From contig OY759352.1 of the NCBI GenBank assembly GCA_963662305.1, positions 2,013,620 to 2,077,619 on the forward strand: 64,000 bases of DNA, read 5' to 3'. The notes below the pieces were generated by a model. That model was not told where the DNA came from, searched no databases, and saw nothing but the letters and a program-made list of their open reading frames with translations. How positions within the stretch are numbered: the stretch's first letter is position 1; each line of letters starts with the position of its first letter. Below are positions 9,049 through 41,450 of this stretch, one piece after another. This DNA comes from Desulfarculia bacterium. GTDB taxonomy: Bacteria > Desulfobacterota > Desulfarculia > G963662305. Made by a program: the position numbers and the translations under genes.

Positions 9049-10242
9049 ATGATCAAAGGGAACCTTTCAACAGTTCGTGAGAACCGAGGTAGACCAGGCA
9101 TGGGGATATTGGTTGAGTGTCCAAACTGCAAGAAGAGGCTATCGGCCTCGGCTACCGTCTGCCAGAGCAGGGGCGGTAAGGGATGCGGTGCAAAGATACC
9201 ACCGGCCCAACGGATATACTGGATCGAATGGATGAACCCGGCCGGGCATAAACGATCCAAGAAAATAGGTCCTAATCGGAAGCTGGCCGAAGACACACTC
9301 TCCAAGCTGAAAAGTGATATTGTCCGGGATGTCTACCTTGACCCCAGGAAGCGGCCGAAGGTCCTGATTGGTGACTTCATCGAGAAGAAATACAAACCCT
9401 GGTGTGAGGCCAATAACAAAGGCTATGCGAACAAGCGCTATTTCATCGACCTGATCAAGAAACGTTGGGGAGGGGTTCTCCTTGATGAACTGAGCATCGA
9501 GGATATAGACCTATACCGGGCCGAGTCGAGCGAGACGGGACGGGTACAGTTTAACCGAGTCCTGGCCACACTCAACCATATGTACACCAAGGCCATTGAG
9601 TACGGCGACGCAGAAAAACATCCTATCCCCACCCTGCTTAAAATGAGGTTCAAGGAGTCTAAGGGCCGGGAAATATTTCTTACCCCGGAGCAAGCAGAAA
9701 CCTTGATTCAGGCCTGCACCGACCACCTCCGCCCCATTGTCATTACCGCCCTTCATACCGGAATGAGAAAAAGCGAGATCCTACAGCTACGGGTTGGGGA
9801 GAACGTAGACCTTGCAGGCAGGCGGATCATTCTGCACGAGGGAATGACCAAGACCGGCCAGCGGCGGGAATTGCCTATTGATGACACCCTTGCAGAGTCC
9901 CTTAAGGGGGTTTTGGCGGGGAAACAGGTGGGAGATTATGTATTCTCCACCAAGGCCGGGAAGCCCTACGGGAACATCAAGAGAGCCTTTGCCTCTGCCA
10001 AGAAAAAAGCTGGGCTGGATGACCTGAGCTTTCACGATCTGCGGCACACCTACGCAAGCCAGCTGGTTATGAGCGGGGTTGACTTGTACGCGGTGGGGCG
10101 GTTATTGGGCCACACAAATGCTAAGATGACCCAGAGATACGCTCACCTGAGCCCCGATTACATGGCCAAGGCGGTATCTGTTCTTGACCGGGTGATGCCC
10201 GGGAAGCCGAAGAGGCCAAACCTGGAGCTGGTCAAGTCGTAG
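9049..10242 (+). CDS. Tyrosine-type site-specific integrase/recombinase
   Basis: C-terminal catalytic signature ...HDLRHTYASQL...LLGHTNAKMTQRYAHL (R..H-x-x-R...Y); N-terminus carries a Cys4 zinc-ribbon-like segment (CPNC...CQSRGGKGC). Confidence 0.9.
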   Translation: MIKGNLSTVRENRGRPGMGILVECPNCKKRLSASATVCQSRGGKGCGAKIPPAQRIYWIEWMNPAGHKRSKKIGPNRKLAEDTLSKLKSDIVRDVYLDPRKRPKVLIGDFIEKKYKPWCEANNKGYANKRYFIDLIKKRWGGVLLDELSIEDIDLYRAESSETGRVQFNRVLATLNHMYTKAIEYGDAEKHPIPTLLKMRFKESKGREIFLTPEQAETLIQACTDHLRPIVITALHTGMRKSEILQLRVGENVDLAGRRIILHEGMTKTGQRRELPIDDTLAESLKGVLAGKQVGDYVFSTKAGKPYGNIKRAFASAKKKAGLDDLSFHDLRHTYASQLVMSGVDLYAVGRLLGHTNAKMTQRYAHLSPDYMAKAVSVLDRVMPGKPKRPNLELVKS

Positions 10243-10320
10243 GGTCTGGGGTTGTTTTATTCGGGAAGCGACCTATTAGCGACCTTACCCAAAAAACAAA
10301 CTTTATGATGGACTTTAACC

Positions 10321-10370
10321 CCTGAATGGGGTTCAGGGGGCCGCTGGTTCAAATCCAGTCGTCCCGACCA
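10321..10370 (+). tRNA. tRNA 3' half (anticodon arm with GGG anticodon = Pro-like, T arm, acceptor 3' strand, CCA); 5' half absent - probable att-site remnant
   Basis: CCTGA-ATGGGGT-TCAGG anticodon hairpin (U33, anticodon GGG, purine 37), T arm GCTGG-TTCAAAT-CCAGT, then CGTCCCG-A-CCA. Upstream sequence cannot form a D arm or pair with the acceptor 3' strand. Confidence 0.5.
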
Positions 10371-10890
10371 TTTTTAGATAATAATTTGGGGGAGTTAGGA
10401 GATATTTCTGGCTCCCCTTAAATTATTTCTCCTGATAACCATATATAATTATACCCAATTATGGTGGCTGAATATACTGCTATCGCCATCTTAGCGGTCT
10501 GGAACACTATTTTGATGTTCCCCTAAGACCTCCTCCCGGTTCTCTGAAAGAGAGTTGTAACGGGTGAGATAAACCGACTCCAGGGGCGGTCTCAGGTCCG
10601 ATCCGGCATTTTCCCGGGCCAAAAGCAGGGGGGTAAGGCCGAACAGCAGCAGATTTGCCGCCAGAGCGAAAGAAATATCGCTATCCGGATCAGAAAGCGG
10701 ATCACCACTCCGGTGTGGGCGGCCCTGTCCGCCACGATGCCCGCCCCGACCATCAGGCTGGCGGTGGTCGCGGTCTTGGCCCGGCGGTCCAGCCAGGGCT
10801 CCTCCTGGGCCGGGTCTTTGAGGAGGTTTGAAAGGCAGGTCCGAGGGGTTGGGATTTAAGTGCCCTGGAAGGACCGCTCTCGGGGTGGAT

Positions 10891-12087
10891 CTACCGGCTC
10901 TGCAGCTGATCCAGCAGGGCCAATTCGTCTTCAAAGGAGGCCAGGCCCGAATGCCGGCCTGTTTTTAGGCTCAGGACCATGCGCCCCTGGTCCAGAGCCC
11001 GGCGGATGAGGTGCTCCACGGCCCAGGTATCCGGAGCCAGGGGGTAGTCGGCCTGGATCAGGATCTCGGCTTGTTCAATCATCCTCCAGGTCGCCTCGAG
11101 TTTCTCAGGCCCGGCTTCCCTAAAGGGTTCGCAGCCCACAATTCTGGCCCCCACAGCCTGGGCCACCTGAAAATCCAGATCGTGTTTCTGCAGGGGGCCG
11201 GTTAGGATGGGAAAGCCACGCTTGGCCAGGAGCCGGAACAGGCCCGCCCCGGAGCCGCCCCCGGCGGCCACGAACACCTTGGGCCGGCCCAGACGCTCGT
11301 CCGGGTCTTCGCTCTGTTCCAGGACACCCAGCCGGGGGTTGTAGGTGGCCCGTTTCAGCTCAAAGGTCCGGCGGACCGAGTCCTGATCCAGAACCCGCTC
11401 CGGCGGCCCCCAGGCCCTGACCCGGCCGTCTTTGACCAGCGCCACCAGGTCCGAGACCCGGGCCGCCGTGTCCAGGTCGTGGAGGCTGGCGATGATGGTC
11501 AACCCCTCGCGCAGACAGAGCCTTCTCAGAATGCCCATGATCTCCAACCGGTGCTTCAGGTCCAGGTGGATGGTGGGTTCGTCCAGAATGATGATCCGGG
11601 GCGCCTGGGCCAGGGCCCGGGCCAGGAAAATCTTCTGCCGCTCGCCGTCCGAGAGGCGGTCGAAGACCCGGTCGGCCAGCTCCGCCGCGCCCACCAGCTC
11701 CAGGGACCGCTCCACCGCGGCCTTGTCCTCCCGGCTCAGCCGGCCCAGGAGACCGGTGTGGGGATGGCGGCCCAGGCCCACCAGCTGCCAGGCGGTGAGC
11801 AGCCCCAGGCGGGGCCGCTCCGTGAGCACCACGGCCTGGAACCGGGCCAGCTGGGCCTGGCTCAGCCCGGCCAGATCGTGCCCCTCCAGATAGACCGCCC
11901 CCTTGAGGGGCGGCAGGAGCCGGGCCAGGGTCCGCAGCAGGGTGGTCTTGCCCGCTCCGTTGGGGCCCAGCAGAGAGACGAATTGGCCCGGTTCCACGCT
12001 CAGGTCGATCCGGCCTATAACCTCCCTGGTTCCGTATCCCACGGAGAGGTTTTCTATCTTTATCAACGGGATATCCGCGGTGCTCAA
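10891..12087 (-). CDS. ABC transporter ATP-binding protein (Fe3+-siderophore/B12/heme importer type) with ~140-aa C-terminal extension
   Basis: Walker A GPNGAGKTT, signature LSDGERQ, Walker B IIILDEPT, H-loop; the N-terminal part of ORF 10891-12546 is a spurious extension; start assigned to TTG at 12087 (GGAG 9 nt upstream) overlapping the permease stop. Confidence 0.8.
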   Translation of the reverse strand: MSTADIPLIKIENLSVGYGTREVIGRIDLSVEPGQFVSLLGPNGAGKTTLLRTLARLLPPLKGAVYLEGHDLAGLSQAQLARFQAVVLTERPRLGLLTAWQLVGLGRHPHTGLLGRLSREDKAAVERSLELVGAAELADRVFDRLSDGERQKIFLARALAQAPRIIILDEPTIHLDLKHRLEIMGILRRLCLREGLTIIASLHDLDTAARVSDLVALVKDGRVRAWGPPERVLDQDSVRRTFELKRATYNPRLGVLEQSEDPDERLGRPKVFVAAGGGSGAGLFRLLAKRGFPILTGPLQKHDLDFQVAQAVGARIVGCEPFREAGPEKLEATWRMIEQAEILIQADYPLAPDTWAVEHLIRRALDQGRMVLSLKTGRHSGLASFEDELALLDQLQSR

Positions 12088-13100
12088 AACGACTTGCTCC
12101 GTCTGATCAGCAGCCCGATGACGATGGGCGCCCCGAAAAAGGCGGTCACGGCCGAAAGGGGCGTCTCCACCGGGGAGAAGAGCATCCGGGCGATAAGGTC
12201 GCACAGCCCGGTGACGATGCCGCCGATAAGGGCCGTGATGGGGATGAGGAGGCGGTTGTCCGCCCCGGACAGGCTCAGCCGGGCGATGTGGGGCACGGCC
12301 AGGCCGATGAAGGCCACCGGACCGGCCGTGGAGGTGACCAGGGCGGCCAGGCCGCAGGCCAGGAAGACCACGGCCACCCGGAAGAAGCGGACGTTGACCC
12401 CCATGGTGGCGGCGTACTCCTCGCCCATGAGAAAGGCGTTGAGCTGCTTGGCCAGCAGAAAGGCGCCCAGCATCAAAGCCCCGCCCCCGATGACCACGGC
12501 CCCCACCTCGGACCAGCGGTATCCGGCGAAACTGCCCAGGGTCCACAGCTTGAACCCCTTGATCTTCTCCGCGTCGGCAAAGGCGATGAGGATGGCCGTG
12601 ACCGCATTGGCCAGATAGCCGATCATCAACCCGGTGATGAGCAGGGTCACCCCGCCCGAGACCCGGGTGGCGATGAGGGTCACGGCCAGCATGGCCGCCA
12701 CGGCCCCCACAAAGGCGGCTCCGGTGGTCAGAAAAGGCCCCAGGGCGGTGAAGCCCACGGCCGCGGTGGTGAGCATGACCAGCCCCACCATGAGGGTCGC
12801 CCCGGAGGAGATTCCCAGAATAAAGGGCCCCACAATGGGATTGCGGAAAAAAACCTGGAGCAGCAGCCCGGCCACGGCCAGGCAGGCCCCGCCCCAGGTG
12901 GCGGCCACGGCCCGGGGCAGCCGGATCTTCCAGACGATGAAGCCATAAGTATCCTCCGGCCCCTCCATCCCGTTAAACACGGTGGCCATGATCTTGGCCA
13001 GGGGGATATCCAGGGAACCGATGACCAGATTCAGATAGAAACTGGCCACCAGCCCCAGGGAGCAGAACAGAAAGAGGAGTTTTGTTCTTCGGGCGGACAT
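12084..13100 (-). CDS. FecCD-family ABC importer permease (BtuC/FhuB/HmuU-like)
   Basis: 338 aa, multi-TM, typical FecCD sequence pattern (LLAGxxLALAGxxLQ, GxxxFIGLxxPHIARxL). Confidence 0.85.
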   Translation of the reverse strand: MSARRTKLLFLFCSLGLVASFYLNLVIGSLDIPLAKIMATVFNGMEGPEDTYGFIVWKIRLPRAVAATWGGACLAVAGLLLQVFFRNPIVGPFILGISSGATLMVGLVMLTTAAVGFTALGPFLTTGAAFVGAVAAMLAVTLIATRVSGGVTLLITGLMIGYLANAVTAILIAFADAEKIKGFKLWTLGSFAGYRWSEVGAVVIGGGALMLGAFLLAKQLNAFLMGEEYAATMGVNVRFFRVAVVFLACGLAALVTSTAGPVAFIGLAVPHIARLSLSGADNRLLIPITALIGGIVTGLCDLIARMLFSPVETPLSAVTAFFGAPIVIGLLIRRSKSF

Positions 13101-30762: not shown

Positions 30763-32805
30763 TTAGCTGTTCCTCCTGGCTATCTCCACCAGTTCCTGGG
30801 CTTTTAGATCCTCTATCTTGAAGTATTCGGCCCCCAGTTCCCGGGCCAGGCGGGCGGCCAGGCCCAGACGGACGATCCCCTGGGGCTCGGTATCCACCAC
30901 CACGAACTTGGCCCGTTCCTCCCGGCCCAGCCGCCCAGCCATGGCCAGGGCCTCCTGGAGGGGTTCCATCTCGGTCCCCAGGCCGGAGTTGGCCTTGCCG
31001 TCGGTGATGACGACGACGATGGGCCGGGCCTCGGGCTCCTTGCTCAAATGGTTGCTCAGCTGGCGGTGGGCCTCGGCCAGACCGGCCGAGACCGGGGTCC
31101 GGCCGCCGATGGGCAGCTCCTTGAGCAGCCGGGCGGCCAGGTCGATGGACGAGGTGGGCGGCAGGTTCACCTGGGCCTCGGTCTTGCGGAAGGTCACCAA
31201 ACAGACCTTGTCCCGCTTCTGGTAGGCGTCCAAAAGCAGGGACAGGATGGCCCCCTTGGTGGCGATCATCCGGGCCCGGACCCCCATGGACCCGGAGGCG
31301 TCCACCACGAACAGAAGAAAGCTGCCGATCCGCTTTTCCCGGACCTTGGTCCGGATGTCCTGGTCGTGGACGCAGACTTGCAGGCCTGATGAACCCTTGC
31401 GCCGGAGCTGGTAGGGGGCCGCGGCCCGGAGGGTGGCGTCCAGGGCCAGGTCGTTGTTCTCCCGGTTGAGATCGGCCTTGACGTAGCGGCCCTGTTTCTG
31501 GCTGGTCCGGGTGGGGGAGCGGCGGCCCGAGCCCCGGCGCAACCGGCGGTCCTTGGGCTGGCGCAGGGTCTTGACCTTAAAGGTCTGGCCCACCTCGAAG
31601 ATCTGCTCCTCCTCCCCGTCATCCGTGTCTTGGTCCTGGGGGGGCTCGGGCGGTTCGGGCAGGGGCAGGTCAAAGGGCTCGTCCAGGTCGTCGTTTTCCT
31701 GGTCCTCCTCCTGGTCCTGGTCGTCGGGCGGGGTCTCGGGCGGCTCCTCCGGTTCCTGGTCCTCCTGCTCCTCCGGCGGCGGAGGGGGCGGCGGGGGCGG
31801 AGGCAGGGGATCCCGGCGGCGGTGGAGCAGGGCCAGGGGGGCCACCCGGATGACCAGGTCCTCGCCGACCTCGGTCCGGCCCTCATAGGCGGCCAGGGCC
31901 CGGGCCGCCTCCCGGATGACCAGGTCGGCCCTGTGCCCGGCCACGTTGTTCTCCAGGCACAGCGAGGAGATGAACCCCTCCACCCGCCGCTCCAGTCTGA
32001 TTTTGGGCAGCAGCTCCCGGGCCCGGACCACGGCTTGGGCCAGCTTCTCCTCTTCCTGGGCGAATGAGGCGGCAAAGCCCTCCGGGTTGTGGTCGTATTT
32101 CTCCTTGCGTTCCATTAGCTCCACCCGGTCGCCCACCTCGGGCTCGCCCTTGACCTCCACGGCCAGGCCGAAGCGGTCCAGGAGCTGGGGCCGCAGCTCC
32201 CCCTCCTCCGGATTCATACTGCCCACCAGGATGATCCGGGCCGGGTGGCGGAAGGAGATCCCTTCCCGCTCGATCACGTTGACCCCCGAGGCGGCCGCGT
32301 CCAGGACGATGTCCACCAGATGGTCGTCCAGGAGGTTGACCTCGTCCACATAGACGAACCCCCGGTTGGCCCGGGCCAGCAGGCCCAGGGAGATGAGCCT
32401 TTGTCCGGTCCTGACCGCCCCGGTGAAGTCCAGCCCGCCCAGGACCATGTCCTCGGTGGCGTTGAGGGGCAGGTCCACCACCCGCACCGGTCGCCTCTCC
32501 CGTTCCCGGGGGTGGCCGTTGGAACGGCAGTCGGAGCAGAACAGCTCCGGGGCCTCCGGGTCGCAGCCGAAGCGGCAGCCCCGGACCACCTCTATCTCCG
32601 GCAGCAGCCCGGCCAGGGAGCGGACCGTGGTGGACTTGGCCGTGCCCTTCTCCCCCCGGATCAGAACCCCGCCCACACCAGGGTGGACGGCGTTCAAAAT
32701 CAGGGCCAGCTTCATCTCCTCCTGGCCCACAATGGCGCTGAAGGGAAAGGCCCGGTGCATGGACCGGATCGGGAACTGGATAGGTTGGGCTTGGGGTTGG
32801 CTCAT
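30763..32805 (-). CDS. Mg-chelatase subunit D-like protein (AAA+ N-domain, Pro/acidic linker, C-terminal vWA domain)
   Basis: Start at MSQPQAQ (ATG 32805); N-terminal ChlI-like AAA+ (IRGEKGTAKST), polyproline-acidic linker (PPPPPPPPPPEEQEDQE...), vWA MIDAS-like motif FVVDASGSM. Confidence 0.85.
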   Translation of the reverse strand: MSQPQAQPIQFPIRSMHRAFPFSAIVGQEEMKLALILNAVHPGVGGVLIRGEKGTAKSTTVRSLAGLLPEIEVVRGCRFGCDPEAPELFCSDCRSNGHPRERERRPVRVVDLPLNATEDMVLGGLDFTGAVRTGQRLISLGLLARANRGFVYVDEVNLLDDHLVDIVLDAAASGVNVIEREGISFRHPARIILVGSMNPEEGELRPQLLDRFGLAVEVKGEPEVGDRVELMERKEKYDHNPEGFAASFAQEEEKLAQAVVRARELLPKIRLERRVEGFISSLCLENNVAGHRADLVIREAARALAAYEGRTEVGEDLVIRVAPLALLHRRRDPLPPPPPPPPPPEEQEDQEPEEPPETPPDDQDQEEDQENDDLDEPFDLPLPEPPEPPQDQDTDDGEEEQIFEVGQTFKVKTLRQPKDRRLRRGSGRRSPTRTSQKQGRYVKADLNRENNDLALDATLRAAAPYQLRRKGSSGLQVCVHDQDIRTKVREKRIGSFLLFVVDASGSMGVRARMIATKGAILSLLLDAYQKRDKVCLVTFRKTEAQVNLPPTSSIDLAARLLKELPIGGRTPVSAGLAEAHRQLSNHLSKEPEARPIVVVITDGKANSGLGTEMEPLQEALAMAGRLGREERAKFVVVDTEPQGIVRLGLAARLARELGAEYFKIEDLKAQELVEIARRNS

Positions 32806-41174: not shown

Positions 41175-41294
41175 GCACCCAGCTTACTTGGTCTCCCCAA
41201 AGGCGCTTTTAATTATCTAAACAGCGCCCGGCCTCGGTCCGGTCTTTCGCCGGCCTTGGTTATGAGCAGATGGCGGGTCTTCTGACTCCCGGAT

Positions 41295-41450
41295 CATCCT
41301 CCGGCCGCCCCTTCCCGCCGCCTTTTTTGACGGCAGTGGCTTATCGCGACCTTTGTCCCCGGTTACAGCGGCGGGACCGTGCCGGACTTGCACCGGCTTC
41401 CCCATTGAGCCTTACGGCACCGATCTACATTATGCCTCTACTAATAAAGG
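41295..41450 (-). promoter_or_regulatory. Cobalamin (AdoCbl) riboswitch aptamer
   Basis: Minus-strand RNA reads ...AAUGGGGAAGCCGGUGCAAGUCCGGCACGGUCCCGCCGCUGUAACCGGGGACAAAGGUCGCGAUAAGCCACUGCCGUCAAAAAAGGCGGCGGGAAGGGG..., matching the conserved cobalamin-riboswitch core (GGGAA..CCGGUG..AAGUCCGG..CCCGCC.CUGU...GCCACUG...GGGAAGG, i.e. the B12 box). Confidence 0.8.

Follow-up and report, generated by a model that had tools for sequence, protein, structure and literature searches.

A displaced tRNA-Pro(GGG) 3' fragment beside a tyrosine integrase as a probable attR-type junction in a Desulfarculia bacterium

Results

Features of the locus

We analysed a 64-kb stretch of a Desulfarculia genome (the window, to which all unlabelled coordinates refer), in which a tyrosine integrase gene is followed by a tRNA-like segment and then by host genes. 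The features that concern the junction are the following:

445-660 (+): 5' portion of an element gene, covering residues 1-72 of its 144-aa product (tblastn 65%, E = 2e-27; blastn 75%)
661-8750 (-): nested low-GC block of 8.1 kb with six genes and 33-40% GC, delimited by composition, profile scans and the split gene
8751-8885 (+): 3' portion of that gene, covering residues 99-143 (tblastn 67%, E = 5e-16)
9049-10242 (+): tyrosine integrase gene (PF00589, E = 2e-34; phrog_1, 1.5e-60)
10243-10320 (+): int-proximal att arm, with two direct, putatively arm-type repeats GCGACCT at 10268-10274 and 10279-10285
10321-10370 (+): displaced 3' fragment of tRNA-Pro(GGG), tRNA positions 27-76, 50/50 identity
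10321-10337 (+): presumptive att core, whose stem halves CCTGA/TCAGG would be inverted core-type sites
10371-10508 (+): tRNA trailer and distal arm, from a terminator scan and alignment to the related locus L040

A tRNA-Pro(GGG) 3' fragment with a sharp 5' boundary

The segment at 10321-10370 (+) reads CCTGAATGGGGTTCAGGGGGCCGCTGGTTCAAATCCAGTCGTCCCGACCA and comprises an anticodon arm, a variable loop, a T arm and the 3' acceptor strand, followed by A73 and CCA. Its anticodon stem (CCTGA/TCAGG) encloses the loop ATGGGGT with the anticodon GGG, the variable loop has 5 nt, the T arm is GCTGG-TTCAAAT-CCAGT, and the 3' acceptor strand CGTCCCG leads into the discriminator A and CCA. An exact-match scan covering one genome per prokaryotic species found the full 50-mer on 39 contigs, all of them from MAGs assigned to Desulfobacterota or 'Deltaproteobacteria'. 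ARAGORN called an intact 77-nt tRNA-Pro(GGG) at 38 of the 39, with the 50-mer always forming the last 50 nt of the gene, from the first anticodon-stem base to CCA; the remaining contig (L004) carries the same tRNA-Pro(GGG), cut by the contig end. The fragment is free of any substitution relative to these functional genes. A 35-nt sub-pattern, searched with up to 3 mismatches, had a single occurrence in the window and none in 100 shuffles, and the likeness to tRNA-Pro(GGG) is far beyond chance.

In the alignment, identity with the intact genes begins exactly at 10321, and of the 27 nt that precede it (10294-10320) only 3 agree with the consensus tRNA 5' half, CGGGACGTGGCGCAGCCTGGTAGCGCA. No complete tRNA was called at 10321-10370 by ARAGORN, and none was found there with Rfam at the gathering score; under a permissive threshold the Rfam tRNA model reached 12.8 bits (E = 7.2), compared with a gathering score of 29. 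The segment lacks the complete cloverleaf, 5' acceptor strand and D arm of a functional tRNA, and a complete but unusual tRNA was ruled out by ARAGORN and Rfam together. One heptamer, CGGGAAG at 10262-10268, agrees with the 5' acceptor strand in 6/7 bases, and the MFE fold pairs it with the 3' strand; as its distance upstream is 59 nt where 26 would be required, and no D arm follows, it was treated as a chance match, and the fold that includes it was not better than shuffles (z = -1.1). The sequence-only reading had described an anticodon arm with GGG, a T arm and a 3' acceptor strand ending in CCA, preceded by sequence unable to form a D arm or a 5' acceptor strand; the first part was confirmed by the 50/50 identity with the ends of tRNA-Pro(GGG) genes, and the second agrees with the 3/27 match and with the empty calls of both programs. 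Its interpretation as a fragment, for which it had proposed a search for a complete tRNA, stands after that search.

We then screened the rest of the window. The fragment has no second copy as a direct repeat within the 64 kb, the tRNA 5' half is absent from both strands with up to 7/27 mismatches allowed, and no genuine tRNA gene lies anywhere in the window. The 97-nt 'tRNA-Arg(gcg)' that ARAGORN called at 32505-32601 (-) was rejected as a false positive, being located inside a 749-aa ORF and lacking Rfam support even at E <= 1.

An intact integrase and the presumptive att site

The integrase gene reads towards the fragment and ends 78 nt upstream of 10321. Its ORF is intact, with all the catalytic residues R-K-H-R-H-Y present (R240, K268, H329, R332, H355 and Y364), and the family alignment shows no variation at these residues or at M18, which is probably the true start (at 9100). 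A database search returned an identical 380-aa protein (P0001, on a 2.6-Mb contig), then the integrase of L040 (ERZ21831104 ctg96697l) at 87%, and then a family at 42-53%. Identity to the integrases of deposited phages was at most 31%. Viral contigs gave no match for the core or for the single integrase protein, and a profile search of them yielded one informative relative, L129. The integrase belongs to a previously undescribed lineage from uncultured Desulfobacterota. The family also shares an invariant four-cysteine motif at the N-terminus (C24, C27, C38 and C46; residues 24-46, window 9100-9190), a pattern that suggests a zinc ribbon replacing the classical arm-binding domain.

Between the integrase and the fragment lies the GCGACCT pair, putatively arm-type binding sites by their sequence and arrangement. 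The motif occurs 22 times in the 64-kb window, and the only pair within 15 nt is that at 10268/10279. The spacer between integrase and tRNA in L040 contains six copies of AGGTCGY/RCGACCT, five in one orientation and one inverted, with one pair at the same 11-nt spacing. By analogy, the 7-nt loop ATGGGGT (10326-10332) is the likely overlap or crossover region, since the direct repeats of the related loci L043 and L045 begin at the first loop base. Downstream of CCA, the terminator scan detected a terminator-like hairpin with a T-rich tail at 10388-10418, and further along the trailer lie the motif TTATACCCAATTAT (10449-10462) and, at 10483-10500, a degenerate version of the arm-type pair; the trailer's ATTGGGTAT-type motif recurs in the spacer between integrase and tRNA of L041. 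A tblastn search of the DNA right of the fragment recovered no remnant of an additional or older integrase, and a 27-nt inverted repeat (9959-9985 / 10507-10533; 78% complementary) is not collinear with an integrase remnant. No HTH_17 or Xis-like ORF was found upstream of the integrase within the window.

A nested low-GC block and the leftward extent of the element

Using the L040 segment 6510-6944 as a tblastn query, we found that the 144-aa gene, which in L040 is intact and lies 3 kb upstream of the integrase, is split in the window into parts at 445-660 and 8751-8885. The AT-rich block between them therefore represents a nested insertion, as it interrupts a gene that is intact in L040. Scans against Pfam, PADLOC and NCBIfam assigned to this block a radical-SAM-like protein, an nSTAND1 NTPase with HEAT repeats, a TehB-like methyltransferase (PADLOC mad2 match, 1e-19), a small membrane protein, an AP_endonuc_2 TIM barrel and a 261-aa protein of unknown function. 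The block resembles defence-type cargo, although it corresponds to no complete known system. An 11-nt direct repeat, ATTTTCAAGAA, at 686-696 and 8171-8181, near both block ends, is statistically marginal and could be the mark of how the block inserted; with this repeat alone present there, the block ends were rejected as att sites.

These findings overturn the earlier view that the AT-rich boundary at ~700 marks the element end, and given that the block is nested, no tRNA is expected at that position. The suggestion that the element may extend beyond the window start was supported, as the split gene places the element at least as far left as 445; the element reaches at least that position and probably passes the window start. 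Compared with L040, the window element also lacks ~2 kb upstream of the integrase, including candidate accessory genes, and with the split gene it looks eroded, so that attL may have been lost. At the very start of the window, a thermonuclease (SNase)-like gene (1-380, -) runs off the edge.

Host DNA to the right of the fragment

By ~10531, synteny with the relatives' ABC-transporter operon, as seen in metagenome loci, is restored, which places the element end within ~160 nt of the fragment, and GC content climbs to the host level of 65-70% from ~160 nt beyond the fragment. Downstream of the ABC ATPase, conservation among the syntenic loci is weak at 10531-10660 and clear at 10963-11290. A metagenome search via the flanking permease returned 80 loci, among them no empty site and none with a tRNA nearby; the sole close syntenic locus (L049, 89%, 1.8 kb) is too short to cover the junction, and the others reach at most 64%.

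The ABC-transporter genes beside the junction (10.9-14.2 kb) encode a permease, an ATPase and a binding protein and look like a BtuCDF/Fec-type uptake system. The ATPase ORF (10891-12546, -) has a C-terminal extension that is conserved in the syntenic loci; within 10531-11380 (-), the ATPase similarity runs in frame past the stop codon at 10891 to ~10531, and this host gene tail may be pseudogenised. A cobalamin riboswitch was located at 41255-41440 (-) (RF00174, 109.7 bits).

Arrangements around related integrases

We compared the att regions of related integrases. In at least four relatives (44-50% identical), the integrase is followed by a same-orientation tRNA 3' fragment that starts from the anticodon loop. 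L043 carries a tRNA-Pro(GGG) 3' fragment after the integrase and a second copy 5.2 kb downstream, and L045 a tRNA-Ala(GGC) fragment with a 62-nt direct repeat (100%) 3.2 kb downstream; the fragment direct repeats in these two loci measure 45-62 nt, and both repeat copies include similar terminators. L211/L212 show an HTH_17 excisionase-like gene, the integrase, a tRNA-Ala(GGC) fragment, a terminator and host genes in succession, and L129 has an integrase with a tRNA-Asn(GTT) fragment. L210, whose contig stops 118 nt after the integrase at sequence resembling a tRNA-Asn anticodon loop, may belong to the same group. The window layout is thus a recurrent, ordinary arrangement among relatives of the integrase.

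An intact tRNA gene convergent with the integrase characterises a second layout. In L040, a gap of 345 nt separates the integrase from an intact downstream tRNA-Pro(GGG), encoded on the opposite strand; the corresponding tRNAs are Ala-GGC in L041 and Asn-GTT in L048. L209 (52% integrase identity) has a third arrangement outside both layouts, with a same-orientation tRNA 5' start (anticodon CAT) after the integrase and then the contig end (7171-7399). In several relatives, the integrase gene lies at one end of a set that includes portal, GP7-type capsid and Mu-F genes, which indicates that those integrases belong to prophage-like elements. The segments bracketed by the two fragment copies just downstream of the integrase in L043 (7287-12561, 5.2 kb) and L045 (7329-10580, 3.2 kb) lack an integrase of their own and could reflect accretion in tandem at a shared tRNA site or the presence of satellite-like passengers there.

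The closest relative differs in polarity. We aligned window 10243-10508 with L040 11141-11562 and found that a stretch of 190 nt (10321 to ~10508) matches, in reverse complement, the L040 segment that reaches from tRNA core to arm pair, at 50/50 in the core and ~75% in the trailer (83% over 145 nt including the core). Despite 87% identity between the two integrases, the one in the window precedes a same-orientation fragment whereas that of L040 converges with an intact tRNA.

Discussion

A probable attR-type junction in tRNA-Pro(GGG)

We interpret the site as an attR-type junction, at which an element integrated into tRNA-Pro(GGG) by means of the adjacent tyrosine integrase, and give this reading a probability of about 0.6. 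It is supported by the breakpoint at the first anticodon-stem base, which is the canonical anticodon-centred sublocation, by the intact integrase 78 nt upstream that reads towards the site, and by the GCGACCT pair whose 11-nt spacing is common to the L040 att arm. The sequence-only reading had proposed that a 3' tRNA fragment beside a tyrosine integrase is a residue of integration, and the anticodon-stem boundary, the putative arm-type repeats and the layout of relatives strengthen that proposal.

The proposed course of integration would be as follows. The attP of the element would include the part of the tRNA that starts at the anticodon stem-loop and ends at its 3' terminus, together with a terminator-bearing trailer. 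The integrase would bind the two stem halves as inverted core sites, with strand exchange presumably taking place inside the 7-nt anticodon loop. The tRNA copy of the element would join the host 5' half at the far end and restore the tRNA, while the old 3' 50 nt and trailer would be displaced to the present end, beside the integrase and the arm-type repeats. The restored tRNA (attL) would lie upstream of the window start. The element would accordingly run leftwards from 10320 through the integrase and the split 144-aa gene with its nested 8-kb cargo to at least 445. That this integrase lineage rebuilds its target is indicated by the intact tRNA-Pro(GGG) adjacent to the L040 integrase.

Several observations weigh against the attR-type junction. 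The element is eroded in comparison with L040, and attL may have gone with the lost parts. The 64-kb window contains no upstream intact tRNA-Pro(GGG) in the same orientation with the other arm; 10371-10508 is homologous to an element-borne arm of L040 and not anonymous host sequence, shares a motif with the L041 arm, and is lacking as a trailer in all 39 other genomes with the identical core; and the polarity of core plus trailer relative to L040 is not explained by a plain attR alone.

Comparison with known integration systems

Lambda-type heterobivalent integrases bind arm-type and core-type sites, and the integrase gene is adjacent to attP. The window resembles these systems in the short GCGACCT/AGGTCGY repeats between integrase and core, candidate arm sites by sequence, in the inverted repeats that flank the core (here the anticodon stem halves) and in the integrase 3' end abutting att. 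It differs in the invariant four-Cys N-terminus, which stands in place of a recognised lambda-type arm-binding domain, and in the target, which is a tRNA gene and not an intergenic attB.

In tDNA-integrated islands, a rebuilt tDNA and a displaced fragment mark the island ends (PMC4383910). The Islander survey defined an anticodon-centred site A, and 2083 of 3919 islands used this anticodon-centred site while 3760 of 3919 left 3' fragments (PMC4383910). As in site A islands and the Williams-type sublocation classes, the window has a tyrosine integrase beside a terminal 3' tDNA fragment running from the stem-loop to CCA; the integrase 3' end faces the att site, and relatives show fragment direct repeats and tandem arrangements. 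Of the Islander signature, the locus and its relatives show the integrase at the island end, the terminal 3' fragment, the canonical breakpoint, and the homologous integrases with fragments (L043, L045, L211/L212 and L129) or intact tRNAs (L040, L041 and L048). The locus departs from site A islands in that the cognate intact tDNA was not found within the 64-kb window and in that the att cassette of the closest relative is opposite relative to the integrase.

Alternative explanations

The missing 5' half raises the possibility that the junction has been orphaned, that is, that integration was of the same type and the element has since decayed or been rearranged, with the 5' half and attL gone or moved. 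The site would then be a dead scar, and the genome may lack tRNA-Pro(GGG) or carry a copy elsewhere. Enterobacteria can do without tRNA-Pro(GGG), as all four Pro codons are read by their UGG isoacceptor. That the 5' half is missing from both strands of the 64-kb window is compatible with such an outcome, as are the erosion relative to L040 (an 8-kb insertion in a gene and ~2 kb gone upstream of the integrase), the lack of an excisionase-like gene beside the integrase, unlike in L212, and the decayed integrase remnants beside tRNA-Pro(GGG) elsewhere, for example in L035. However, the integrase ORF retains every catalytic residue, the 50-nt fragment is unchanged from functional genes and the putative arm-type pair is intact. 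Moreover, in relatives the integrase marks the end of elements exceeding 10 kb, several of which include phage head genes, and attL would be expected beyond the window start in any case. We consider an orphaned junction a serious alternative, possible rather than probable.

The opposite polarity in L040 allows departures from a plain attR, in which the cassette was recently flipped relative to the integrase or persists as a frozen attP-like scar that has lost its tRNA 5' half, in a host without tRNA-Pro(GGG); we regard these as doubtful. Plausible sources of the difference include the trailer of an earlier L040-type occupant, an exchange between element and host repeats, and an att cassette that was flipped or replaced as a module. 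An L040-like attL that had been inverted locally was rejected as unlikely, as no reverse-complement tRNA 5' half occurs in the window at <=7/27 mismatches, and a random inversion is unlikely given that the breakpoint falls exactly at the anticodon-stem start. An arm-like trailer is not abnormal in itself, since both repeat copies of L043 and L045 include similar terminators.

The fragment and trailer may also be the element's own attP-like P-core-P' cassette and not displaced host DNA, either inverted since the split from L040 or forming a junction with a nearly deleted earlier occupant of the L040 type. This proposal would account for the alignment of 10321-10508 with the reverse complement of an L040 element arm, for the ATTGGGTAT-type motif in the int-proximal arm of L041 and the degenerate copy of the arm pair, for the absence of the trailer 3' of the identical tRNA in 39 other genomes, and for integrases that are 87% identical yet opposite in att orientation. 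Against it, host synteny is back within ~160 nt, leaving no second element body, and the window holds no second integrase remnant. The similar terminators in both copies of L043 and L045 make an arm-like trailer expected at a true attR, and L211 has the integrase and then a fragment directly before host genes. Such a cassette is, in our judgement, unlikely.

A further scenario is non-reconstituting integration ('tRNA-dependent lysogeny'), in which the tRNA is cut and left unrestored and the element's own tRNA compensates, as documented in actinobacteriophages (PMC10865867). In the Cluster K4/L mycobacteriophages, this type of lysogeny involves a common core of ~10 bp and requires the phage tRNA (PMC10865867). 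Similarities to the window are the tRNA gene as target of a tyrosine integrase and the truncated tRNA at a junction, with only the 3' part visible and no intact tRNA in the window. In contrast to that defining ~10 bp core, the repeats of relatives span 45-62 nt over the whole tRNA 3' part, the tRNA-identical block here has 50 nt, and L040 lies beside an intact, evidently rebuilt tRNA-Pro(GGG). No element-encoded tRNA of the same isotype occurs in the window, where the element is partly in view, and no tRNA gene is borne by the visible 10 kb of the element; this scenario is very improbable.

A tRNA gene that decayed in place, or a tRNA-like sequence that arose by chance and has no connection with the integrase, could account for the absence of the 5' half and for nothing else. 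This reading is effectively refuted by the alignments, as 50/50 identity beside 3/27 marks a breakpoint rather than gradual decay, at the canonical att sublocation by an integrase and putative arm-type repeats.

Implications

The site is a textbook att scar, real but unsurprising, and mildly unusual only in the opposite att polarity of L040. The fragment sets the right boundary of the element at ~10370-10530 and identifies tRNA-Pro(GGG) as the target, and the AT-rich, defence-like block becomes cargo nested in a larger element, so that the island is delimited differently. If the cassette has indeed flipped, the integrase-bearing prophage end and the rebuilt-tRNA junction would be switchable by inversion or exchange of a cassette of ~190 bp.
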